Assembly: GCA_018304505.1 (NCBI GenBank)
Contig: JAGVWA010000001.1
Span: forward strand, 68,363 to 132,362
DNA from: Nanobdellati archaeon
GTDB lineage: Archaea > B1Sed10-29 > JAGVWA01
Direction: 5' to 3'
Length of the DNA stretch: 64,000 nucleotides
The notes below the pieces were generated by a model. It was given only the letters and a program-made list of their open reading frames with translations. It was not told where the DNA came from and searched no databases. Positions 11,948 through 35,590 of this stretch are shown in pieces; the stretch's first letter is position 1, and every line of letters starts with the position of its first letter. The position numbers and the translations under genes are program-made.

Positions 11948-14392
11948 ATGGAATACATTGCTGACTTACATTTGCACTCTGCTTATTCTCGCGCAACAAG
12001 CCCAAAAATGAACCCAATTGACTTGTCAGAAGCAGCAAAGGTAAAAGGCGTCAACCTCATCGGCACTGGCGATTTTACACACCCAAAGCACCTCGATTTT
12101 TTGAAACAAAACCTAAAACAAGACACAGCTACCGGCTTTTACCAATATAATGGCATGGATTTTGTCTTGACTGCAGAAATAAGTTTAATGTACACCCAGG
12201 GTGGCAAAGGACGACGGGTTCATCACTTGCTCTTCGCGCCAGACTTTGAAACAGTAGACCAAGTCAACGCAGAGCTGGACAAGTGGGGCCGCAGGGACTA
12301 TGACGGCCGGCCCATTTTCGGCAAGCCCAGTATAGACCTAGTAGAAATGACACAATCAATTTCAGACAAAATCGAGATCATACCGGCGCATTGTTTGCTT
12401 CCTAAAACACCAATACATTGCAACCCCCAAACCAAAGATATTGATAAAGTCAAAAAAGGGGATATTGTCTATACCCACACCGGAAAAAAAAGAAAGGTTA
12501 AAGCAGTATATTCCAGACCATATATTGGAAAAACATATACTATAAAACCATGGTATTTCTCGCTAGGACTGACAACAACTGATGAGCACCCCTTCTTTGC
12601 TATAAACTCTTATAAGAACTGCTCTTGGATTAACGGCAAACCACAATGTTCCCAAAAGGACACCTATAAAAAAACCCCCTTCAAGAAGTATAAACCTGAA
12701 TGGATACAAGCAAAAAACCTGAAAATTGGAGACGTTATCCTCTACCCCCGATTTAGACAGATTAAAGACATTCAACAACTTGGCACTAGAAAAATAGTAA
12801 AACAAAACCTTAGAAACAAAAAGAAAGTGCCGGCTCAAATACAAATAGATGCAGATTTCTGCAGACTAATAGGGTACTATCTCGCTGAGGGCTATTCGAA
12901 TAGGAGGGATAGAATAGGGTTCACATTTAGAGAGACAGAAACAGAGTACTTAAACGACATACAACACATTATCAAAAATCAATTTGATCTTACTCCAAAA
13001 ACAGGAAAAGATAACGGCTTAAGCAAAGATCTTGTGTATTCTTCTAAAGAACTAATGCAATTGTTTGAGCACTTATGCTATTCACAAAATTCCAAAAAGA
13101 ATGCTATAACTAAAAAACTAAACCCCATCTTCATGGAATTACCAATGGCAAAACAAAAGGAGCTCTTTAGAGGTTGGTGGAGAGGCGATAAAGGATATAC
13201 CTCTTCAAGAGAATTGATGAACCAAATGAAAGTAATATGCTTAAGAATGGGCATTATCCCTTCTGTTCTTGTGGATTCAAAAGATAAACATACTCGCAGA
13301 GGAAATCATTACTACACAACAGAAAAAAGATTAATCAAATCCAATGCAGACAACTATAGTTTAAGCAACCTCGCATTCTTTGGAGAAAATCTTGACTTAT
13401 TAAAAGACCCATCCTTTAAAAAATTCAAAACAAAAATGAAAAGGCGACATGGGTGGATTGATGAAAATTATGCCTACCTTCCAATACGCGAAATAATCGA
13501 AGAAGAATATACAGGGCCTGTTTTCAACCTAGAGGTAGACATCGATAACTCGTATGTATCTGAGTTTGCCACAGTACATAATTGCTGGACCCCGTGGTTC
13601 GGAATCTTTGGCAGCAACGGCGGCTTCGACTCAATCAAGGAATGCTTCCAGGAAAAATCGAAACACATACACGCAATCGAGACCGGGCTCTCTAGCGACC
13701 CTGCAATGAACTGGCGCTTATCGAATTTAGATGACATTGCATTGATTTCCAATTCCGATTCGCATTCACCCTATCCGTGGCGCTTTGGCAGGGAAGCGAC
13801 GGCATTCGACATAACTGGATACGCAGACATGCTTACCGCAATAAGAAAACGCGATCCAAAAAAACTGCTGTACACCATCGAAGTCGACCCAGCCTACGGA
13901 AAATACCATTACGATGGCCACCGAAACTGCGGTTTTGAGTGCTCGCCAGAAGAAACCAAAAAACTCAGCGCAGTTTGCCCCAAGTGCAACAAGCCCATTA
14001 CAATTGGCGTTGAATCCAGGGTGGACGAACTCGCCGACAGGCCACACGGTTACACGCCAAAGAACGCCATACCCTACAAGACCTTGCTGCCGCTAGCAGA
14101 GCTGATAGCAAACCTTACAGGATCTGGTTTAGCAACAAAAAAGGTAATGGAGCCACACGACCTCCTAGTTAGTAGGCACGGCACTGAACTAAATGTACTG
14201 CTCAACGTGCCTGAAGAGGAATTGAAAAAAACGGTGCATGAGAAACTAGTTAAAGCAATCATGCTGAACCGCGAAGGCAAAATCAGTGTGAAGCCGGGCT
14301 ATGACGGCGTCTATGGCGTACCCCAATTCGATTTCTCGCTCGACAGCACACAAAAACAAAACATTCCTCAGAAGACCTTGAACGATTTCTAG
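11948..14392 (+). CDS. Endonuclease Q (PHP-domain, TIGR00375 family) containing an intein
   Basis: N-terminal PHP motif DLHLHSAYS...GTGDFTHP; C-terminal Zn finger CPKCNKPITIGVESRVDEL. The extein is ~417 aa once the 397-aa insertion is removed. Confidence 0.75.
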   Translation: MEYIADLHLHSAYSRATSPKMNPIDLSEAAKVKGVNLIGTGDFTHPKHLDFLKQNLKQDTATGFYQYNGMDFVLTAEISLMYTQGGKGRRVHHLLFAPDFETVDQVNAELDKWGRRDYDGRPIFGKPSIDLVEMTQSISDKIEIIPAHCLLPKTPIHCNPQTKDIDKVKKGDIVYTHTGKKRKVKAVYSRPYIGKTYTIKPWYFSLGLTTTDEHPFFAINSYKNCSWINGKPQCSQKDTYKKTPFKKYKPEWIQAKNLKIGDVILYPRFRQIKDIQQLGTRKIVKQNLRNKKKVPAQIQIDADFCRLIGYYLAEGYSNRRDRIGFTFRETETEYLNDIQHIIKNQFDLTPKTGKDNGLSKDLVYSSKELMQLFEHLCYSQNSKKNAITKKLNPIFMELPMAKQKELFRGWWRGDKGYTSSRELMNQMKVICLRMGIIPSVLVDSKDKHTRRGNHYYTTEKRLIKSNADNYSLSNLAFFGENLDLLKDPSFKKFKTKMKRRHGWIDENYAYLPIREIIEEEYTGPVFNLEVDIDNSYVSEFATVHNCWTPWFGIFGSNGGFDSIKECFQEKSKHIHAIETGLSSDPAMNWRLSNLDDIALISNSDSHSPYPWRFGREATAFDITGYADMLTAIRKRDPKKLLYTIEVDPAYGKYHYDGHRNCGFECSPEETKKLSAVCPKCNKPITIGVESRVDELADRPHGYTPKNAIPYKTLLPLAELIANLTGSGLATKKVMEPHDLLVSRHGTELNVLLNVPEEELKKTVHEKLVKAIMLNREGKISVKPGYDGVYGVPQFDFSLDSTQKQNIPQKTLNDF
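12392..13582 (+). mobile_element. Intein (Hint plus LAGLIDADG homing endonuclease) inside the EndoQ gene
   Basis: Begins CLLPKTPI and ends VHN followed by Cys. LAGLIDADG blocks LIGYYLAEGYS and KELFRGWWRGDKGYTS. The insert is AT-rich relative to the extein. Confidence 0.8.
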
Positions 14393-21608: not shown

Positions 21609-21711
21609 GAAAATCGATGATGTTTACGAAGCCTAGACTTTGTTCTGGGCTTCTGTAAATCTTGATATACAAGAAAACAAAAAAACAAAAATAAAAAATG
21701 GAGGAAATACC

Positions 21712-24495
21712 ATGAAAAGCTTGAACATAAAGCGAGCAGCAGCAGTTGCAAGTGGCCTTGCAATGGTTGGAAGCATGATAGCTCCTGGTATCGCTCAAGT
21801 ATCAGTAGGCGACGGCGTTGCCAACTTGGTTAGCACTATGAAGTCTAACCTGGACGCAACACAATGTGTCGTCGGTACAAACGGAGCAGCAATCAGTGAC
21901 GGTGTACAATGTGCAAAAGTTGTACAGGCACTAATGGCTGCAAACTACGTCGCATCAGCAGACGGCCTCTCAACAGACACAACTGGAGTAGGCGCAACAT
22001 CTACAGGCGACAAGTCTGTTACAGTAACTGTAGCAGGCGGAACAACAGGCACGGTAAAATCACAAACAACCAGCACAAGAGTCGTAGAAATGACCCGAAC
22101 CGCGGCTGGAACAGGAGCACCTGCAGTCTACCTAACCGATGAAACAAACAAGACAATCGGACAATCAGAGTTCCCAGACGCACTAAGCAAGACAACAATA
22201 CAGAGCACTGTAAACGGCAGCTCGGACACATACGTGTACGAGGAAAAGATCTGGCTCTGGAACGTGAACGCACAATACCTCGAAGCAACGTCCACAACCT
22301 ACCCAGGACACGGACTATACTTCGTAGCACCATATACTGAACCCGGAGCAACTGGAGAAACAGGACAATCTACAAGTGCAGCCATTGAATATGGTATTGA
22401 ATTCTCCGGAAATGGAATAAAGACCGGCTCTGGTTGGAGCTACCTAGAATCGCCAAGCATTGTAATGTTTGGCAAGGAATTTGGTCTTGACACATCAAAC
22501 ACAAGAGATGGACAAGCAAAACTATTCCAAGGTGGAACCACAAGCCTGAACTCCGGAGAAACAGTAGTAACAGCTGAGGGCGTGTCAGTAACCTTCACCA
22601 CAGGATCAAAAGTGGGCACAACCGTCTACGGACAATTCAAGGTAGAGGGAACATACTCTGACGGAACAACCTACAGCTTCTCAACAAGCCAACTAGCAGC
22701 AGGGCAAAGCCAAGAATTCGGAAGTGGAACAAAACAAATAACCGTATTCGTAGACTTTGTCGGTGAAGTAGGCACAGGAACATACACTGGAAGGGTAAGG
22801 GTCGGTGCAGCAACAATAACACTAACAGAAGGCTCACCAGTGCCAGCAGCATTCGGAGACGACCGATGGTACGTGTCTGAAGTCAATGGAACCAACACAT
22901 CAACAGCAATAGCTGGTTACGTAAAAAGAATCAAGTTCAGATACGGTAACCCAGCATACACCACAAAACTAGAACGAGGACAATTCGACACAAGCACACA
23001 GTACGGCCTAGCACAAGGGGTAACTGTAAACGGACCAAAGAACCTAGGAACAGGCGAAGGATACCTCTTTGACTTGGCAATGACCGGCTTTGGCTCAACA
23101 AGCAGCCAAGTAGACACAACCGCAGTAAAACTGCAAGGCTCTGGATCAACTACAGCTGAGCAATACATCCGAGCAGAATGGACCTCAAGAGATGGAACAG
23201 CAAACGTTTTTGCACCAAGCACAGGGGCATTTGCAGTGTTTGCAGTCAACGAAACCGCATCTTTAGGTGTTACAATGACACCAACAACACCAACAACAAT
23301 AGTTAACGACAAGGTCGTAGAGTTCGTCAATGTCGACGACTCAACATCAAGCAACGTCAAGGTAACACTGCGCGTAGGTGGTTTAGGTGGAGAACAGGTA
23401 ACCTTTAGCGGTTTCGCAAACGCTAGCGGTGACTCACAAACAGGCCTAAGTGTATGGGACAAGGGAGCAAACCCAATCACCTGTACAATAACCATCAACT
23501 CAGTAACCAGCGTAACACTAGGCTTTGCAGGAACAACGGCAGCAACGTCAGACGCCTCAAGCGGACTCTGTGACTCACATCCAAACATCATCCCAGTAGG
23601 CGACGCAACAAGGATAACCAACACTGGTGGCAGTGTGCCATACCTCGACATGCTGGGTGCAAAAAATGGGACATACGCAGATGGGTCAGCCATCATAGTT
23701 GACTTGGCCGGCAACGTAACCTTCACTGACGACCAACGAGACTGGAGCTATATTAGACTAGTTGAACCAAATGGAGACAACATAACAGCAGTCTACGACA
23801 GGGATGTCACTGGTGACATAGATGACACAAGCGACACAGCAGGACAAGGTTTCTTGCTGTACAACGTCCTAGCACCAAACGAATCTGGTTACCTAAACTT
23901 GACTGGAGCAACAGCAATGGTCCACCAAGTAGCAAGCACAAACGAGGCTAACATCTACGAAAACAACAAGTACCACACAACCAGAGGCGGATCTGTGATC
24001 GACGGCGCAACAAGGTCATCACTAACACTGGACGTGCCAGAAACAAGCACAGGCAGGAACGTCATCTTGGAAATCACCAAGACCGCAGCAGCGCCAACAG
24101 GCGAAGCAGTAGAAGCTGGCGACCAGGTAGTGTCTGAAGGAGGCATCGTGAGCGGAGTAACAATCAAGTCAATCACATGCCCAACAGCAACAGTAACTGG
24201 CCTCGACTCAGTAACCGTAGTCGGCGGAGCAGGTGGGGCCCTCTTTGAGAGGCAAGCAGCTCTGACACCAGGCAGCTTGATCGCAACAGACACCACAGCA
24301 ACAGCAACCTACCAGATCGTTGTCGGTGGACCATTCGTCAACAGAGTGGCACAGGCCATGGCAGCTGGACAAAGCACAACAGAACTCGGCGCACAAGTAC
24401 TTGCAGCAGAAAGCAACAAAATCTTAGCAGCAGGATACTCTGGAACTGACACAGCAGCAGCAGTCGACGAACTGATCAAATTGCTACGAGCGTAA
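21712..24495 (+). CDS. Surface-layer (S-layer) protein candidate
   Basis: 927 aa with signal peptide MKSLNIKRAAAVASGLAMVGSMIAPGIA. Extremely Thr/Ser/Gly/Val-rich with many N-x-S/T sequons, a strong promoter and SD, a T-rich terminator, and a glycosylation gene cluster downstream. Confidence 0.65.
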   Translation: MKSLNIKRAAAVASGLAMVGSMIAPGIAQVSVGDGVANLVSTMKSNLDATQCVVGTNGAAISDGVQCAKVVQALMAANYVASADGLSTDTTGVGATSTGDKSVTVTVAGGTTGTVKSQTTSTRVVEMTRTAAGTGAPAVYLTDETNKTIGQSEFPDALSKTTIQSTVNGSSDTYVYEEKIWLWNVNAQYLEATSTTYPGHGLYFVAPYTEPGATGETGQSTSAAIEYGIEFSGNGIKTGSGWSYLESPSIVMFGKEFGLDTSNTRDGQAKLFQGGTTSLNSGETVVTAEGVSVTFTTGSKVGTTVYGQFKVEGTYSDGTTYSFSTSQLAAGQSQEFGSGTKQITVFVDFVGEVGTGTYTGRVRVGAATITLTEGSPVPAAFGDDRWYVSEVNGTNTSTAIAGYVKRIKFRYGNPAYTTKLERGQFDTSTQYGLAQGVTVNGPKNLGTGEGYLFDLAMTGFGSTSSQVDTTAVKLQGSGSTTAEQYIRAEWTSRDGTANVFAPSTGAFAVFAVNETASLGVTMTPTTPTTIVNDKVVEFVNVDDSTSSNVKVTLRVGGLGGEQVTFSGFANASGDSQTGLSVWDKGANPITCTITINSVTSVTLGFAGTTAATSDASSGLCDSHPNIIPVGDATRITNTGGSVPYLDMLGAKNGTYADGSAIIVDLAGNVTFTDDQRDWSYIRLVEPNGDNITAVYDRDVTGDIDDTSDTAGQGFLLYNVLAPNESGYLNLTGATAMVHQVASTNEANIYENNKYHTTRGGSVIDGATRSSLTLDVPETSTGRNVILEITKTAAAPTGEAVEAGDQVVSEGGIVSGVTIKSITCPTATVTGLDSVTVVGGAGGALFERQAALTPGSLIATDTTATATYQIVVGGPFVNRVAQAMAAGQSTTELGAQVLAAESNKILAAGYSGTDTAAAVDELIKLLRA

Positions 24496-28726: not shown

Positions 28727-30212
28727 AGACGGTGATCGAAAAATGAACAAGAAAATATTGTGGATATCCCTAGCATTTCTGATACTCTACTCCACGCCGC
28801 AACTACTGCGCGACGTGTACCTTGACGGAAACCTGATAGGCTTCACCACATATTTCCACGAACGCTCTGCAGAGAACCTTTTGCAGGGACAATTCTATGA
28901 TAACCTTAGCTTTGGAGGCAGGCCGTACACATACCCCCCTGGATTCCACGTGCTCCTAGCCCTGTTAATGCCAATAGGCAAATACCTAGTTCCATTGTTC
29001 GGCGCCATCGGAATAGTTGTTTGTTATTTCTTCAGCAAGCAGATAGGGCTGAGCGAAAAAGAGGCAACCCTTGCATCGGTTTTCCTTGGAATAATTCCAG
29101 GGTTCTTCTACTTGTCTAGCCACATCAATCCAAGGCTGCCGGCACTGGTTGCGCTTGTTGCGGCGTTTTACTTCCTGCAGAAAACAGAAATGAGAGACAA
29201 ACTCGCCGCAGCATTGCTCTTGTCATTTGTTTTCCTGCTGCACCCATTGGTTGGCTTCACTGGCCTTGTTTTCGGCGCAGTCCTGTTTAACAAGAACAAA
29301 ATCGCCATTCCGTACGCAATCGCCCTTGGCGCATTCGCATTATGGTTTATCCCTTTCACTTACGCCAATGGTCTTCCGATGCCGAGCGAGTTCTACAGCA
29401 ACTACTCTGAATTGCAGCGCGGGGTTCAATACTTTATTTACGAAACAGGCACAGCTGGCGACAGCGTCGGCATAATAATGCTTGCCATCGCAGCTTTCGG
29501 CTTGTTCAAGGTCTCTGGGAAAGAAGAGCGGACCATTGCACGGTGGTTCGTTCTCGCCGTTGTTGCAGCATTGGTGCTGGGAAATAGGCTTGATGAACAA
29601 ATCCTGTTCCCGACAGCGATTTTGATGAGCATTGTCATTTCCAGGCATTTAGCTGACTTTGAAAAATCATTCAACCTGAATAAATTCATAGCCCGAAGCA
29701 AGTTAAAGATGCTCTTCAGCGTGTACTGCATTGGCCTTGTTGCCGCGGTTTTCATCAACATGACGACTTTCATGCCCTACCAGAATGACTACCATGCGTT
29801 GCAGTGGATCAAGCTCAACACCCCGCAGGACGCGGTCGTGGCGAGCGCGTGGGAACTGGGGCACTGGGTCACTGGAATCGCAGAGCGAAAGAACATTATT
29901 GACGCGTATGCAGAGTATGCGCCTGAAATTGACGAGCGCTACAAGGATGTGCAGAACATCTTCTTTTCATCCGATGTTGATGAAGTGCTCCCCATCCTCA
30001 GGAAATACAACATAACATACATATACTATCGCGTAACTGAACTAAACCACTGTTCGGGCCTGCCGTTCCTGACAAGATCAGGGTACTTAGACACGGTTTT
30101 TCAAGAGGCGTCTGCTGATGGCAGATCAACAAGCTTAGTTTTCAAGATTGAGTATAGTGGTACCAACGCAAAACAAGACCTGTGCAGCTCATTAATAGCT
30201 TCAAGCAAATAG
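28719..30212 (+). CDS. Paralogous GT-C fold membrane glycosyltransferase
   Basis: 497 aa, multi-TM. YFHERSAENL loop resembles the previous protein. Probable start is at M9 (28743). Confidence 0.5.
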   Translation: MVKDGDRKMNKKILWISLAFLILYSTPQLLRDVYLDGNLIGFTTYFHERSAENLLQGQFYDNLSFGGRPYTYPPGFHVLLALLMPIGKYLVPLFGAIGIVVCYFFSKQIGLSEKEATLASVFLGIIPGFFYLSSHINPRLPALVALVAAFYFLQKTEMRDKLAAALLLSFVFLLHPLVGFTGLVFGAVLFNKNKIAIPYAIALGAFALWFIPFTYANGLPMPSEFYSNYSELQRGVQYFIYETGTAGDSVGIIMLAIAAFGLFKVSGKEERTIARWFVLAVVAALVLGNRLDEQILFPTAILMSIVISRHLADFEKSFNLNKFIARSKLKMLFSVYCIGLVAAVFINMTTFMPYQNDYHALQWIKLNTPQDAVVASAWELGHWVTGIAERKNIIDAYAEYAPEIDERYKDVQNIFFSSDVDEVLPILRKYNITYIYYRVTELNHCSGLPFLTRSGYLDTVFQEASADGRSTSLVFKIEYSGTNAKQDLCSSLIASSK

Positions 30213-31280
30213 TTCTTCAATAGCAACAGTTGCATAGCTGCCCTTAGGCAACTCGAATTGTACGACCTTGTATTCCTGAGTTGACTCGAGCACGTTGAAG
30301 TTTCTCAATTCGACATACAGCGCCCTTCTGTGGCCCTTTGAGGAAAGCTCTTTTAGCTCGCGAATTTCGAACGCCCCTTTTTCCAAACCGTGCTTTTCGA
30401 AAACTTCCCGTTCGAGGGGATTCATAAACTTTGTCTGCGAGCCAAACAGCGGGCCGTCTGTGTAATTCAGTTTTCGTTCAATAACAATGTCCAAGAACTC
30501 ATTGAAGAGCCTTGACTGGAACGCATGCACAAACATCTTCTTTATGCGCCTCGGCAGGCTGTTTATCGCCCCTCTGAAATCCCCCGGGTTCGCGTCAAGA
30601 TATCCAAGTAAGGTGCGCTCGTATTTCAAATGCATTGGGTAGTACTGCAGCGCCCCGTGGAAGTCTCCCCAATTATCTACAAGTTTGCGCCTCGCGTCCA
30701 GCGATTCTTTTTCCTCTTTTTCATGTATGTCACAGAGATAGATTTTCACGGCCTGTTCATAATTACGCTTTAAGATCTGCCCCCCCACCACGTCAGTTAT
30801 AGCCCGGGTTTTTCCAAAGCGCTGCTCTCCAAAGTAGTTTGGTATTTTAGTAACACTGCGCGGTTCTCTTTCAGTGTACACCTTAATCGTGAACTTGTTG
30901 CCTGAGAGATCGCCGAGCATTATTTGGGCATCTGAAAAATAAATGGGCTGCAGTTCAATGTCGCGTATCCGAATGCCTTTTAATTCCCCGATCTTTTCAG
31001 CCGGCAATGATACCCTCTGTGCTGTTACTGCTTTTTTGTCCTTGGTTCCAGCAATGCCGATTTTGTTGTGGCTCATCCTGAGTTGCTTGGCGATGGCCTT
31101 CAGGGCCTGCTGGTTATCCCAGTTTGTTTTTTGTAATTTACAAATTAGGTATTCCCCCTTCGACGTAGAATCAAAGGATTCAGGCGTGTTGATTTTCATT
31201 ACCTGGGCTTGTGGCGTTATCTCCTCTACTATGAAGTCTTCGGGTGACTTCTTGATTTCGTAGGCCTGTTTATCTGGCAT
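30201..31280 (-). CDS. truD: tRNA pseudouridine synthase TruD/Pus7
   Basis: Catalytic motif IGIAGTKDKKAVTAQ (GxKD) and NYFGEQRFG motif. Confidence 0.8.
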   Translation of the reverse strand: MPDKQAYEIKKSPEDFIVEEITPQAQVMKINTPESFDSTSKGEYLICKLQKTNWDNQQALKAIAKQLRMSHNKIGIAGTKDKKAVTAQRVSLPAEKIGELKGIRIRDIELQPIYFSDAQIMLGDLSGNKFTIKVYTEREPRSVTKIPNYFGEQRFGKTRAITDVVGGQILKRNYEQAVKIYLCDIHEKEEKESLDARRKLVDNWGDFHGALQYYPMHLKYERTLLGYLDANPGDFRGAINSLPRRIKKMFVHAFQSRLFNEFLDIVIERKLNYTDGPLFGSQTKFMNPLEREVFEKHGLEKGAFEIRELKELSSKGHRRALYVELRNFNVLESTQEYKVVQFELPKGSYATVAIEELFA

Positions 31281-31283
31281 GCC

Positions 31284-32003
31284 TTACCACTGCTCTTTGT
31301 GCAATAGGTCTTTAGGGATGCCGTTTTCTTCAAGCATGCTTATCATGGCTTCTGCAAACTGCGGAGAGCCGCAGACGTAGTAATGGCACTCCGCTGGTTT
31401 TTCAACGTACTTCTTGACCATTTCGTAATCTATTCTGCGAGCTTCCCCATCCAGAGTTTCGCCTTCAGCCAAACGGGTAAACGCATTAACTACTACGATT
31501 TTTTCTTTTGGCACGCCCCTCAATTCCTGGAACTCGGTTTTACACAAGAGCATGTCCTTGTTTTTGCACGAGAAGAAAAAGTAAATCTGCTTTGGAAAGC
31601 CACTTTCCAGTAAGAACTTTGCCATGCTCCTTAACGGCGTTATTCCTGTTCCAGCACCGAGCAGCACCACTGGCCTTGTTTTGTCGTCAAGCAGGTTGAA
31701 CTTACCAAATGGCCCATGCACGTTGATTTCTCCACCGATCACGAGTTGATCCTTGAGCTTGTTTGTGAATTTTCCTTCTATGCCTATGATTAGCTCAATT
31801 TTGTCTGTGACATTTGGTGAGCTGGCTATCGAATACGACCGTTTAAGGTTCGGCTCATCGTCGAAGAACAGCATCACGAATTGCCCGGGAATGAACCTAA
31901 AATCATTAACAGGCAACTTGAGCGTGAATTTGTATACCGTTGGCGCGTCTTCTTCGATCTTCGCGAGTGTGGCTTTCAGAATTCTCGGTTTTGATGACTC
32001 CAT
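31284..32003 (-). CDS. FAD/NAD(P)-binding oxidoreductase (ferredoxin-NADP reductase / PyrK-like)
   Basis: RSYSIAS (RxYS FAD-binding) and GAGTGITP (NAD-binding) motifs. Confidence 0.6.
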   Translation of the reverse strand: MESSKPRILKATLAKIEEDAPTVYKFTLKLPVNDFRFIPGQFVMLFFDDEPNLKRSYSIASSPNVTDKIELIIGIEGKFTNKLKDQLVIGGEINVHGPFGKFNLLDDKTRPVVLLGAGTGITPLRSMAKFLLESGFPKQIYFFFSCKNKDMLLCKTEFQELRGVPKEKIVVVNAFTRLAEGETLDGEARRIDYEMVKKYVEKPAECHYYVCGSPQFAEAMISMLEENGIPKDLLHKEQW

Positions 32004-32066
32004 ACAATCGTCCGCTCCATTGCCATTTGATTACTTACACGGATTACTTACCTTTTATTATTTACA

Positions 32067-34829
32067 TTACTTGTACCGAAGCATTGCGCCGATTCCGCCG
32101 AAGCCCTGCAGGAACTTCCTCCCAGCTTCTGTTTCCGTTGAAATTATTTCAATCTCCGCGCCGGTTTGTTCAGCAAGTTCAATGAACACATCGACTAAAT
32201 CCTTAAGTTCCACTTCCTGTTTTGCATTGCATTCCTTGCAAACGTGGTTCTCCTTGTTGAACTGAAAAACGCTTTTTACTGTTTGCTCCTCAACATGCCC
32301 ATTCGTGCACGTCATGGTTGCGCGCTTCCAGTCAATGTCCTCGGACAGCAAAACCAACTTGGCCTGCCCATTTAGTAGGACCTGCTTTACAATCTCTTCC
32401 CCATACACAGCCAAACCTTTTTTGGCGGCCTCCGCGATGAAGTCCTCGACGAGTTTCATTTCCTTGTGTATCTCCAGGTCCTTGATCAGGCCCTCTGACA
32501 TGTTCACTGCTTCCTGAATTCCAAATTCGTCTGTGTAGCCCGTATCGACAATGCCAATGAACTTGGCGGTGATGTTGTTGTGCAGGTTCGAGTTTTTCGC
32601 GAACGCGTGCTTAGTGGGCCCGCTGCCCCCGAGTATGATGCCCGTGATTTTCTCGTCTGCAAAGATCTCATTCATTGATTCTGCGATTTCCTTGAAAAAC
32701 AATTCTGCTTGTTCTTCTATTAGGCGATCGAAACGCAGGGCTGAATTGTGTACCACGAGATTGTTGGCTACAAAGGATTCGGTAGCCGGAACCGCCAAGT
32801 CCCAGTACTTTCCTGTTGGGTTTTCAAGCACCTGTTTTTCCTTAACCTCTACCTGCATAAGTTCTGAGGCTCCGATTTTTTCCAGCAGGTTTAGGTATGA
32901 ACGCTCTTCAAAAGACAATAGCTTACCGTGAAGCGCTTTTTTGGCGGCTGAGACAATGTTTTTGTTGTAAACCTTGAAACTGATGTTCCTGTGCCCGTTC
33001 AAAAACCCATTTGCTGCCTGAAACATGGTGGCTTTGAAGCCTAGCCGTAGTAACAGTTCTTTGATGAACCTTCCGCTTACAGGCACTTGGTCTGTGGTGC
33101 TCCTATAAGCCTCGGATAACTTTATCTTCGCTTGTTTTTTGGCGCTTGCAAACCCTATGTGCTCTTTAAAAAGTGCTCTTGAAGTTGGTTCTGAAATGTC
33201 GATTTCGAATTGGTTTGACTGCGCCTTGACTTTATAGTTTGGCTTTGAGATCACTGATGATATTATGCCAAAGCGCAATAGGAGTAATTGGATTTGCTTT
33301 ATCATTAGCTCGTTGGCCATTGCAAGGCAAATTCGTGACCCTCGGCATGAATCCCCTGTTTTTCTGTTGTTGACGTAGCCCTCGCCATCGAATAACCCTC
33401 TGAGGAAACCTTTCAATACCCGGTTTTCTGCCCTCATGATTTTCTCGGGAACGCTTATGGTCTTGCTTTTCTTTTCGAGTTCGGGGAAATTCATAACTAA
33501 GAAATCCCGGAAGTCGAGGCTGTGGATGGATACGACGTAATGGCCTTTGCTTGGCCTGTTTCTCATCGAGGGTTTGAGGCCTGTGGTTTTTTCAACCAAT
33601 GTGCAGTAGTGCCCTGCCACTTGTTTGTCGCCTTCATATAGCCTGATTCTGTTCCGCTCAAGGTTGCCGTCTACGAGCATATACCCGACTAACTGGACCA
33701 AGTCGCTTGTTAGCGTTTCCTGAGCAATGAAGGGCTCGTACTTCGTCACGTATCTTGAAAAAAAGTCCTCCTTGTCGAGTCCATAAATCGCTAGTATCCG
33801 TTCTATTGTTGTGTCAAGTAAATCCGCTTTTCCTATCTCAAAGTTAGATAGTGTGGCTTGTGCAATGCCTGCTTTTTCGGCGGCATCCCGCTGAAGCATT
33901 TTCAGGGATTTGCGTTTGCTTATCAGTTGCTCTCTACCGCTGTTTGTTATTCTATAGACCAGCGGCAGTTGTTGAAGGCTTACAGGCCCTGTGTTGACAT
34001 AAATCTTTCTGACTGACAAAATCATATCCCCTTTTTCGATGTCTGCTGCCTGTTTTGCCCTGATGCCCGTATTGCCTAAGGTGAAGAAATAGTGCTCGGG
34101 TGTGGTGTTGATTTCAAGCTGGGGAGATGTTGTTCTGATAATGTAGGCTTCGTCGCTTGTTTTTGAAAACACTTGCTCGCACTTTTGGCACCCAAGCTTG
34201 AAGTTCACGTTGTCTGAAGACACGACAACGTCGCCCGCCTTCACGTGCTTTAGCGGCAAGATCACGCCATCTTGTCTCTGTATCAGCGTGTCTTCGTGCA
34301 GGCATTGCCCCCCTTTGTGGTGTTTTCCCGGCACTGTGGAGTGCATTTTTTTGATGATGTTTGACTGCTTGCCTTTCATGATCGCCAGGGTCGCCTCGCG
34401 GCGGTCCATTACCACGATGCCGTACTGATCCTTTGCCTCTAAGTATCGCTCTAGGGGCTCTACAAGAAATGTTGAGTCGCAGCGATAGGTCTGAATAGGT
34501 ATTGGGTCTTCAGGAGGCACTACTGTAAACACCTCAATTTTGTTGTCGATGCTGCCGGCGAAAATCGCTACGCCGTTCTCTGGCGGTTTATTGACCCCTT
34601 TAAGCATGTGCAGAATCCGCTCCAGGGCAGACTGCACGTTCTTTCTGGTCTGCTTCGACTTGATGTTCGAGGCTTGCCCCATCTCATCGCGCAGTTTGGC
34701 AACTACATCGTTAACATTGTAGCTCGGCGGAATGTAAACACTAATCAACTCTGTGCCCTGCCCGCGTAGCGTTTTCAGGTGCTTGAGCTTCTTCTGGAAC
34801 TCGTAGAACTCCCTTGAATGCCGTGCCAT
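32067..34829 (-). CDS. prf1: Peptide chain release factor aRF1 containing a 520-aa intein in the GGQ motif
   Basis: NIKS motif (ASNIKSKQTR). GGQ is followed by the intein Cys, and the sequence resumes SALRFDRL after VVHN. The extein is ~400 aa. Start trimmed to MARHSREFYEF. Confidence 0.85.
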   Translation of the reverse strand: MARHSREFYEFQKKLKHLKTLRGQGTELISVYIPPSYNVNDVVAKLRDEMGQASNIKSKQTRKNVQSALERILHMLKGVNKPPENGVAIFAGSIDNKIEVFTVVPPEDPIPIQTYRCDSTFLVEPLERYLEAKDQYGIVVMDRREATLAIMKGKQSNIIKKMHSTVPGKHHKGGQCLHEDTLIQRQDGVILPLKHVKAGDVVVSSDNVNFKLGCQKCEQVFSKTSDEAYIIRTTSPQLEINTTPEHYFFTLGNTGIRAKQAADIEKGDMILSVRKIYVNTGPVSLQQLPLVYRITNSGREQLISKRKSLKMLQRDAAEKAGIAQATLSNFEIGKADLLDTTIERILAIYGLDKEDFFSRYVTKYEPFIAQETLTSDLVQLVGYMLVDGNLERNRIRLYEGDKQVAGHYCTLVEKTTGLKPSMRNRPSKGHYVVSIHSLDFRDFLVMNFPELEKKSKTISVPEKIMRAENRVLKGFLRGLFDGEGYVNNRKTGDSCRGSRICLAMANELMIKQIQLLLLRFGIISSVISKPNYKVKAQSNQFEIDISEPTSRALFKEHIGFASAKKQAKIKLSEAYRSTTDQVPVSGRFIKELLLRLGFKATMFQAANGFLNGHRNISFKVYNKNIVSAAKKALHGKLLSFEERSYLNLLEKIGASELMQVEVKEKQVLENPTGKYWDLAVPATESFVANNLVVHNSALRFDRLIEEQAELFFKEIAESMNEIFADEKITGIILGGSGPTKHAFAKNSNLHNNITAKFIGIVDTGYTDEFGIQEAVNMSEGLIKDLEIHKEMKLVEDFIAEAAKKGLAVYGEEIVKQVLLNGQAKLVLLSEDIDWKRATMTCTNGHVEEQTVKSVFQFNKENHVCKECNAKQEVELKDLVDVFIELAEQTGAEIEIISTETEAGRKFLQGFGGIGAMLRYK
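32745..34304 (-). mobile_element. Intein with LAGLIDADG endonuclease and an embedded HTH_XRE domain, inserted between GGQ and S of aRF1
   Basis: Starts CLHEDTLIQ and ends LVVHN followed by Ser. LAGLIDADG blocks LVGYMLVDGN and GFLRGLFDGEGYVN. The XRE-type HTH is LKMLQRDAAEKAGIAQATLSNFEIGKADLLDTTIERILAIYGL. GC content is close to that of the host gene. Confidence 0.8.
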
Positions 34830-34924
34830 GCCGATTTCATCTCTGGTGTGTGCGCCTGTGTGCAAAGAAAAGTCTTATATTGGTATTATGGGTTCTGTTA
34901 ATTATAAATGTTTCAGGGTATATT

Positions 34925-35590
34925 ATGGTTGTTGTCGTCAGTCTCGGCGGGTCTCTCGTGTTCGACAAGAAACTCGATACTGGCTATTTGAAAAAGCTGG
35001 CTAGGTTACTCCGCGAGTCGAAAAAGCAATACTGCATCACTGTTGGAGGTGGAAAGATTTCCCGAGACTACATCTCTGCTGCGCGGGAGTTCAAGGAAAA
35101 CAACTTTGAACTTGACATGATCGCCATTCAACTTACTAAGGCCAACGCGCGCATTGCTGCATCTGCTTTTGGGGGCCTGTTCTTTGACAAGATCTCTGAG
35201 GCCGCGGACTTCATTGCTATTGAGGACAAAACCGTTGTGCTCGGCGGCACTTCGCCTGGGCAGAGCACAGACACTGTCGCAGCGCTGTTGGCCGAGGACA
35301 TTAAGGCAGAGCGCTTTGTCAACCTGAGCAACGTGAACGGGATTTATGATAAAGACCCGAAAAAGCGCGGTGCGAAGCTGATCAAGAAAATGACGCACAA
35401 AGACTTGACGAAATTTGCTTTTGAGAATGACGAGCGGCAGCCCGGAAAGCACTTCATCATCGACAGCATGGCTGCCAAGATTCTAGAACGGGCCAACATC
35501 GAGGGGCACTTTGTCAATGGAAAAAAATGGAAAGACGTGAAGCCTGCCTTGCTGGGCAAGCCTCACAGCGGCACCTTAGTCAAAAATTGA
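34925..35590 (+). CDS. pyrH: Amino-acid kinase family protein, probable archaeal uridylate kinase
   Basis: N-terminus MVVVVSLGGSL and GGTSPGQSTD motif; ~222 aa. Confidence 0.55.
   Translation: MVVVVSLGGSLVFDKKLDTGYLKKLARLLRESKKQYCITVGGGKISRDYISAAREFKENNFELDMIAIQLTKANARIAASAFGGLFFDKISEAADFIAIEDKTVVLGGTSPGQSTDTVAALLAEDIKAERFVNLSNVNGIYDKDPKKRGAKLIKKMTHKDLTKFAFENDERQPGKHFIIDSMAAKILERANIEGHFVNGKKWKDVKPALLGKPHSGTLVKN

Follow-up and report, generated by a model that had tools for sequence, protein, structure and literature searches.

The gene for the archaeal release factor aRF1 in a 64,000-nt stretch of a Nanobdellati archaeon assembly (GCA_018304505.1, contig JAGVWA010000001.1, positions 68,363–132,362; hereafter the window, whose own numbering is used throughout) is split by an intein whose insertion point in the catalytic GGQS motif falls precisely between Gln and Ser. 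In addition to splicing segments of the Hint fold, this intein carries a LAGLIDADG homing endonuclease (HEN) and a helix-turn-helix (HTH) domain of the XRE type. Judging from sequence and modeled structure, we consider it probable (roughly 0.7) that the element is a homing intein of long residence that probably remains active and uses its HTH as an accessory domain for DNA targeting.

A release factor split at its catalytic loop

The open reading frame (ORF) encoding the precursor spans positions 32067–34865 on the minus strand; its first ATG, at 34829, is the likely start and gives a 920-residue product that is a 100% match to an NCBI protein (P0001) in a metagenome-assembled genome (MAG) labeled 'DPANN group archaeon'. 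In translation, the junctions read ...STVPGKHHKGGQ/CLHEDTLI...FVANNLVVHN/SALRFDRL, where a slash marks each boundary of the 520-residue insert. The first (Cys, 34304–34302) and last (Asn, 32747–32745) codons of the insert coincide exactly with the ends of the interval 32745–34304 given in the original prediction, which had been made by a model from the letters of the window. Excision of the insert in silico yields a 400-residue aRF1 with NIKS, YRCDSTF and a contiguous GGQSALRF, bearing out the predicted location between GGQ and Ser. The spliced protein scores 428.6 bits against the TIGR03676 aRF1_eRF1 equivalog model (cut-off 234.7, E-value 2e-128), and the Pfam eRF1_2 and eRF1_3 matches pick up again directly behind the intein, in the C-extein. 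A gene fusion or an assembly artefact can be ruled out because the reading frame runs through without a break, no motif is missing and identical junctions are seen in more than 100 independent assemblies.

The GGQ loop of class-I release factors has to reach the peptidyl-transferase centre. With a 59-kDa insert at the tip of this loop the precursor should be inactive, and release activity would therefore depend on splicing. No second aRF1-like ORF is present in the 64-kb window besides 32067–34865, and within this view the position of the insert makes a strict dependence of release-factor activity on splicing, as originally proposed, a reasonable inference.

The insert matches the Pfam families Intein_splicing (E-value 3.1e-16) and LAGLIDADG_3 (E-value 1.3e-16, residues 297–384), and its reading frame is unbroken through all 1560 nt. 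In an alignment with 62 homologous aRF1 proteins (63 in total, with 26–39% identity to this intein), residues C1 (block A), H71 (block B), D502 (block F) and H519 and N520 (block G) are invariant, as are the LAGLIDADG glycines G207 and G213 of motif 1 and G303 and G309 of motif 2. The acidic residues D212, D306 and E308 of the two motifs are at least 90% conserved; in this copy the motifs are closed by D212 (LVGYMLVD212G) and E308 (LRGLFDGE308G), with both catalytic acids intact. Retention of splicing and cleavage residues at 26–39% identity indicates purifying selection on both sets of residues. The invariant Cys1 and His-Asn and the Ser+1 at the junctions support the earlier description of the insert as an intein bounded by blocks A and G, and the Pfam matches, conserved residues and modeled fold agree with its assignment of Hint and LAGLIDADG blocks. 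The intein is of class 1 and almost certainly splicing-competent, and its nuclease is likely to be active now or to have been active recently.

An AlphaFold2 model of the intein, built with the homolog alignment as input, has a predicted local distance difference test score (pLDDT) of 95.5 and a predicted template-modeling score (pTM) of 0.92. A beta-rich Hint segment (residues 1–119) is followed by five helices (121–185), a nuclease with a double alpha-beta-beta-alpha-beta-beta-alpha (pseudo-dimeric) fold (200–385), a four-helix domain (411–478) and closing Hint strands (482–519). The top five Foldseek matches in the PDB are all solved HEN-containing inteins, with TliVMA (7qss) the best structural match (E-value 1e-25, template-modeling (TM) score 0.76 on target), accompanied by PI-TkoII (2cw7), PI-PfuI (1dq3), PhoVMA (7qst) and PI-SceI. 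Matches of lower rank include the free-standing LAGLIDADG enzymes I-Tsp061I (TM 0.72) and I-DmoI (TM ~0.68), WhiA, Hedgehog Hint and mini-inteins. A PDB sequence search with the whole intein returned the TliVMA intein as its sole match, in the nuclease region only. Directly behind LAGLIDADG motif 2, this copy has an insert of about 12 residues (Table 1). At least about 90% of the 62 aligned homologs lack this insert, which is also the sole low-confidence stretch of the model (block pLDDT 70).

Table 1. Positions of the aRF1 gene, the parts of its intein and other features in the window
Feature	Intein residues	Window positions	Strand	Basis
aRF1 precursor gene, 920 codons plus stop (N-extein, intein, C-extein)		32067–34829	-	ORF listing, TIGR03676, eRF1_1/2/3 domains
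N-extein, 175 residues: N domain with NIKS and YRCDSTF, start of M domain, end ...KHHKGGQ		34305–34829	-	
Intein, 520 residues, class 1 (Cys1 ... His519-Asn520, then Ser+1)	1–520	32745–34304	-	Pfam Intein_splicing, conservation, model
Hint N-terminal part; block A Cys1, block B T68-P-E-H71	1–119	33948–34304	-	All-beta in model; conservation
XRE/Cro-C1-type HTH; helices 121–133, 138–145, 149–156, 164–174, 178–185	120–186	33747–33947	-	
Two-motif LAGLIDADG homing-endonuclease domain	196–385	33150–33719	-	LAGLIDADG_3, conservation, fold matches
LAGLIDADG motif 1, LVGYMLVDG	205–213	33666–33692	-	
LAGLIDADG motif 2, LRGLFDGEG	301–309	33378–33404	-	
Insert behind motif 2, NNRKTGDSCRGS	311–323	33336–33374	-	
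Second accessory domain, helical; helices 411–420, 425–435, 443–458, 465–478	386–480	32865–33149	-	Model
C-terminal segment of intein		32745–32864	-	Conservation, model
C-extein, 225 residues: start SALRFDRL (Ser = +1 nucleophile), remaining M domain, C domain with Cys-rich insert		32070–32744	-	
AA_kinase (UMP-kinase-like, divergent), aRF1, TruD		30201–35590		
Oxidoreductase FAD/NAD-binding-like gene, 239 residues		31284–32003		
Second intein, 397 residues, inside ORF 11948–14389		12392–13582	+	
Open frame of 952 codons (stop to stop)		21637–24492	+	

An XRE-type domain between Hint and nuclease

The HTH_3 match of the intein covers residues 129–180 (E-value 1.8e-08, 34.7 bits against a gathering cut-off of 23), and the same family is precomputed for most of the homologs. 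When the segment is modeled alone (residues 113–192, with 21 homologous segments), the same five helices are obtained with a pLDDT of 91. Residues R131, Q138, G146, Q149, S153, E156 and G158 of the XRE signature are each the commonest residue at their position in 46–58 of the 63 aligned inteins. A spurious match is ruled out by the score above the Pfam cut-off, the five-helix fold and the conserved signature, and the domain is thus the complete HTH_3/XRE unit that had been predicted. Foldseek matches to the HTH model include DdrO, HipB, C.BclI and other restriction-modification controllers, 434 repressor/Cro, SinR, ClgR and MBF1/EDF1 (TM 0.6–0.8, root-mean-square deviation (rmsd) 1.6–2.8 Å); a PDB sequence search with the segment alone gave two weak matches.

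The best structural match of the HTH is EDF1/MBF1 on collided ribosomes (7o81_AU; also 6zvh and 9f9s), and the captured domain could conceivably derive from MBF1, an archaeo-eukaryotic protein with an XRE-type HTH. A function specific to aRF1, or ribosome binding like that of EDF1/MBF1, is rejected in view of the same module in inteins of DNA-metabolism proteins.

The GGQ-site allele is widespread in DPANN and Nitrososphaerales MAGs and is not unique to this genome: it occurs in more than 100 aRF1 clusters. A search with the full-length query found 90 clusters, with the junction GGQ/C...HN/S in 84 of the 84 that have a delimitable insertion, and an exhaustive phmmer search with the intein alone found 2627 representatives at E ≤ 1e-3 and 63 at E ≤ 1e-30. 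A scan of species-representative genomes gave 249 confirmed loci, the best 80 of which were examined in detail. All 77 that could be resolved are aRF1 genes whose intein has the HTH, the LAGLIDADG nuclease and the second helical domain. The N-terminal junction is GGQ/C in 73 of them; the other four comprise two with GGS/C or GGW/C at the same site, one truncated at a contig end and one unresolved. Taxon labels of the loci are Micrarchaeota, Iainarchaeota ('ainarchaeum'), Woesearchaeota, Nanoarchaeota and Aenigmatarchaeota, as well as seven Thaumarchaeota/Nitrososphaerales MAGs.

Three forms of the intein are found among 108 complete GGQ-site copies. HTH and nuclease are both present in 86 (490–577 residues), 12 have the nuclease without the HTH (319–502 residues) and 10 have neither (eight mini-inteins and two intermediate forms, 139–163 and 217–220 residues). 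The second helical domain is present in 97 of the 98 nuclease-bearing copies, and no case of an HTH retained without the nuclease was found among the 108. The coexistence of full, HTH-less and mini forms at one site is what would be expected from a homing cycle in which inteins invade, become fixed, suffer decay of the nuclease and are finally lost.

The module is not confined to aRF1. Within the top 150 matches, the order Hint–HTH–LAGLIDADG occurs in 19 of 88 non-aRF1 representatives, with a clear HTH match in Top6A, a RecJ-like DHH/DHHA1 protein, the termination factor FttA/aCPSF1 and dCMP deaminase and a weaker signal in RadA and UDP-GlcNAc 2-epimerase. Another 12 of these representatives have an HTH-like segment solely behind the nuclease, a position known from solved structures. 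The recurrence of this order in unrelated hosts indicates that the HTH moves along with the nuclease, independently of the host protein. The original prediction called an HTH unusual for inteins, which is accurate only relative to characterised inteins: at the GGQ site the domain is standard, and at least six other host proteins have inteins with the same arrangement.

Some individual copies deserve mention. A Micrarchaeia MAG (L020) has KGGS/C, with codon TCA, and an Aenigmatarchaeota MAG (L057) has KGGW/C, with codon TGG, such that splicing would convert GGQ to GGS or GGW; these could be decaying or duplicated aRF1 copies or sequence errors. Two GGQ-site inteins of 500–502 residues (P0043 and P0063) have no HTH-profile match despite room between Hint-N and nuclease, and the gap may hold a different or strongly diverged domain. 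Thaumarchaeal aRF1 genes (L006, L067; P0051–P0053, P0069, P0089) contain a second, upstream intein with junctions ...TYLY(M, R or Q)/C...LVHN/CDDH(Y or F)HLE. It directly precedes the Cys of the YxCxxxF stop-codon-recognition motif, so that both functional motifs of aRF1 are intein-split; P0089 has the upstream intein alone, with GGQS uninterrupted. Two MAGs labeled as bacterial ('Chloroflexi bacterium', L044; 'Aminicenantes bacterium', L065) contain an archaeal aRF1 with the GGQ-site intein and are probably affected by binning contaminants. Eight 'uncultured Methanosarcinales' third-party annotation (TPA) MAGs (L009, L013, L019, L036, L047, L062, L075 and L077) have a Nano/Woesearchaeota-type aRF1 junction, EVPGKF[KR]AGGQ, which suggests that their labels are wrong. 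Finally, the intein aligns almost without gaps to the NCBIfam model NF045703 ('tetraether lipid synthase Tes, intein-containing'; residues 40–362 to model positions 217–523). This alignment covers the HTH region and hints that the Tes intein may share the Hint–HTH–LAGLIDADG layout.

The archaeal HEN inteins TliVMA and PhoVMA have the same order of Hint-N, two-motif LAGLIDADG nuclease, helical accessory domain and Hint-C, and the second helical domain of the aRF1 intein sits where the TliVMA and PI-PfuI inteins have their accessory domain (the accessory-domain (ACD) position sensu Beyer & Iwai 2022). In HEN inteins, DNA cleavage has been shown experimentally to be influenced by accessory domains, among them the HTH-like domain of TliVMA, and HTH-like accessory domains have been described for TliVMA and PI-TkoII at a position other than that of the aRF1 HTH (Beyer & Iwai 2022, PMC8966425). 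The HTH_3 domain of the aRF1 intein is not at the ACD position. Its place is between Hint-N and the nuclease, which in the VMA inteins are connected by an unstructured loop of 28–32 residues (PMC8966425), and the aRF1 intein hence has two accessory domains. Host and site also differ (the V-ATPase P-loop versus the aRF1 GGQ), and sequence identity is ~17%.

The closest functional analogy for the HTH is found in PI-SceI (1lws), where an extra DNA-binding module on the N-terminal Hint half extends the contact of the nuclease with its homing site. Unlike the aRF1 HTH, that module is inserted inside the Hint fold and has a different fold, and the superposition is poor (rmsd ~27 Å, TM 0.42). PI-TkoII and PI-PfuI, ranked third and fourth in the PDB search, are likewise large archaeal LAGLIDADG inteins with added domains (an accessory domain in both and 'domain IV' in PI-TkoII), but their hosts are different (DNA polymerase and ribonucleotide reductase) and neither scored as a sequence relative. 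We know of no HTH_3-type sequence domain described for either. WhiA (3hyi, 8dy9; Foldseek ranks 18–19) also combines a LAGLIDADG fold with an HTH; it is not an intein, its catalytic residues are lost and its HTH is C-terminal, whereas the acids of the aRF1 intein are conserved and its HTH is N-terminal to the nuclease.

A homing model and its alternatives

How the element might work can be outlined from its motifs, from which we infer the splicing steps. The 920-residue precursor would be translated and an N-S acyl shift at Cys1 would start splicing; the Ser behind GGQ would then attack the thioester (trans-esterification), Asn520 would cyclise with the help of His519 to release the intein and an O-N shift would remake the GGQ-SALRF peptide bond. 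The expected products are a normal 400-residue aRF1 and a free 520-residue intein. The latter is predicted to be a monomeric two-motif LAGLIDADG endonuclease that cuts the GGQ-coding DNA of intein-free aRF1 alleles, into which the intein would be copied through recombinational repair. The HTH and the helical domain behind the nuclease may together form an accessory module for DNA binding that makes the contact with the homing site longer or firmer, a putative functional analogue of the DNA-recognition region of PI-SceI and the accessory domains of TliVMA and PI-TkoII. We assign this role to the HTH because it travels with the nuclease across unrelated hosts, because it is selectively maintained and because accessory domains of HEN inteins affect DNA recognition, as in PI-SceI and TliVMA (PMC8966425); on balance, a function in DNA targeting seems rather likely.

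Base composition bears on how long the intein has been resident. Its GC content (GC) is 0.460 and its third-position GC (GC3) is 0.54, compared with 0.497 and 0.63 for the extein, 0.471 (GC) for the window and 0.483 and 0.558 ± 0.082 for ORFs of at least 250 residues. The intein shows no compositional anomaly and no sign of recent arrival. The earlier statement that its GC matches the host gene therefore holds in the sense that no anomaly is seen, although the intein is slightly AT-richer. We also compared intein and extein identities across 97 non-identical copies, using C-exteins only because the second intein in thaumarchaeal N-exteins confounded the comparison. Inteins are the more diverged, with a mean identity of 0.335 versus 0.414 for exteins, and intein identity exceeds extein identity by more than 0.10 in 88 of 4656 pairs. 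The small number of such pairs argues against frequent recent transfer and is compatible with occasional transfer. By intein as well as by extein, this copy is closest to sequences of the Micrarchaeota type (~34–39% and 46–51% identity, respectively). A long and mostly vertical residence of the intein would fit these data.

Relatives without the intein are close at hand. The aRF1 proteins most similar to the spliced extein in a database search (52–56% identity, 395–400 residues) are intein-free. In one such ortholog, on a 1.08-Mb contig (L081), the protein reads GGQSALRF and the gene lies in the order AA_kinase–aRF1–TruD. The intein-free target site reconstituted from the window is ...CACCACAAAGGGGGGCAA/TCAGCCCTGCGTTTCGAT... 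(90-bp version, AAAATGCACTCCACAGTGCCGGGAAAACACCACAAAGGGGGGCAA/TCAGCCCTGCGTTTCGATCGCCTAATAGAAGAACAAGCAGAATTG), and the ortholog shares 25 of its 30 central nucleotides. Empty sites that look cleavable thus exist in related lineages. The gene order is common to the window (Table 1), which has one extra gene, the oxidoreductase-like one at 31284–32003, between aRF1 and TruD compared with L081. An old, ameliorated resident, as the original prediction had it, agrees with the composition and with a relatedness that tracks host lineage. The intein is unlikely, however, to be a dead relic, since nuclease and HTH residues are constrained, the closest exteins are intein-free and the target in L081 is near-identical.

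Several observations weigh against active homing and against a targeting role for the HTH. Across the 97 copies, intein identity correlates moderately with C-extein identity (Spearman 0.47), and for 89 of them the nearest neighbor by intein falls in their own host-junction group. In the databases searched, the best match to this intein is 39% identical and no close copy turned up; together with the host-tracking relatedness, this leaves no direct sign of recent homing for this copy. The joint loss of HTH and nuclease in mini-inteins is weak evidence, as one deletion in the centre would take out the two at once. At residues 150, 151 and 154, where the recognition helix presumably contacts bases, aRF1 inteins vary, although their targets should be nearly identical; this is more in keeping with contacts that are loose or co-evolve than with a specific readout that is fixed. 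The accessory domain of TliVMA lowered (broadened) specificity (PMC8966425). In view of the variable helix positions and of TliVMA, the HTH may add affinity or tolerance more than specificity.

These points bring up the possibility that the intein is an immobile relic, fixed and vertically inherited, in which nuclease and HTH no longer act on DNA and splicing alone is maintained because its loss would kill an essential gene. Host-tracking similarity, a best homolog at 39% identity and a composition indistinguishable from the genome would all be expected of such an element, the low-confidence insert behind LAGLIDADG motif 2 is unique to this copy and the existence of mini-inteins at the GGQ site shows that the nuclease can be dispensed with. 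On the other hand, 63 copies at ~30% identity still have both acidic catalytic residues, the glycines of the LAGLIDADG motifs and the signature of the HTH, which neutral decay would not have spared; the frame is intact through the whole of the intein and the closest relatives carry intein-free alleles with a near-identical target, the very situation in which homing is selected. We therefore regard an inert relic as unlikely, and a homing intein that is still active, or was until recently, as the better account.

A second, host-relevant activity of the excised intein, conferred by the HTH through regulatory DNA binding or through gating of splicing by HTH–DNA binding or conditions, seems to us quite improbable. 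Were it real, it would imply post-translational control of release-factor supply in reduced-genome archaea and would explain why several archaeal phyla retain an HTH-bearing intein at the GGQ site of aRF1. In its first form, the free intein would act as a sequence-specific transcription factor, for autoregulation or on host genes, which would explain its wide retention. The HTH is of the canonical repressor type, WhiA (among the fold matches noted above) sets a precedent for a transcription factor built from LAGLIDADG and HTH parts and I-TevI uses its HTH for autorepression. Against this, the catalytic residues of the nuclease are retained, unlike those of WhiA, no copy among the 108 has the HTH but lacks the nuclease and the same module is found in inteins of unrelated host genes. 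XRE repressors, moreover, usually act as dimers on palindromes; nothing suggests a dimer interface here, and a single HTH within a monomeric nuclease would contact at most one half-site. A regulatory role is accordingly very improbable. Still less plausible is a conditional switch in which redox state, temperature or HTH–DNA binding sets the supply of active aRF1: the catalytic-loop position makes the precursor almost certainly inactive, conditional splicing is documented in other archaeal inteins such as that of RadA (Topilina et al. 2015, as cited in PMC4760082) and this copy has Cys1 and a CxxC at residues 39–42, but the CxxC is not conserved among homologs, for which reason we reject it as a redox switch and see no conserved sensor, intein-free orthologs work without any such device and insertion into catalytic motifs is a general rule for inteins that needs no adaptive explanation.

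Significance, annotation and other features of the window

The aRF1 GGQ site is a new insertion site and an HTH between Hint-N and nuclease a new domain variant of selfish elements that are themselves well understood. Relative to characterised inteins there are three differences: the host and site, the XRE domain between Hint-N and nuclease, a position unseen in any solved intein, and the presence of two accessory domains. With this case, a translation-termination factor split at its catalytic GGQ loop joins the list of intein hosts. Archaeal alleles in MCM, RFC, RNR, aIF2, RadA and PolB are likewise insertions into catalytic motifs of essential information-processing proteins, and core translation components contain few inteins, according to the survey of Novikova et al. 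2016 (PMC4760082); aRF1/eRF1 does not appear as a host in its main text. Text searches of the literature found no paper on an aRF1 intein, although the supplement of Novikova et al., which lay outside the search, may list the allele.

Beyer & Iwai hypothesised that inteins capture DNA-binding domains of transcription factors and attempted a graft of the 434 repressor (PMC8966425). The aRF1 intein family looks like a natural counterpart of both the proposed capture and the engineering. Its HTH-bearing and HTH-less variants at one site offer a natural comparison for the effect of an accessory domain on target recognition, and the family could supply new meganuclease scaffolds. Our understanding of inteins is unchanged by these findings, and we rate their importance as moderate.

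There is also a practical consequence for annotation. The aRF1 of the window is named 'helix-turn-helix domain-containing protein' at NCBI, and many orthologs are named 'LAGLIDADG family homing endonuclease'; automatic labels on some public relatives read 'eRF1/intein/homing endonuclease' or 'eRF1/transcriptional regulator with XRE-family HTH domain'. Name-based marker-gene, completeness or metabolic surveys of DPANN genomes could thus score aRF1 as missing.

Two further features lie elsewhere in the window (Table 1). The long open frame on the plus strand matches no Pfam family at E ≤ 1e-3. The second intein, with junctions ...EIIPAH/CLLPKTPIH...EFATVHN/CWTPWFG, has a LAGLIDADG_3 match (27.7 bits, cut-off 22.5) and is without an HTH. 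Its spliced host aligns end to end with the PHP-domain family TIGR00375, which we take to be the endonuclease Q family, at 203 bits, below the cut-off of 326.6.

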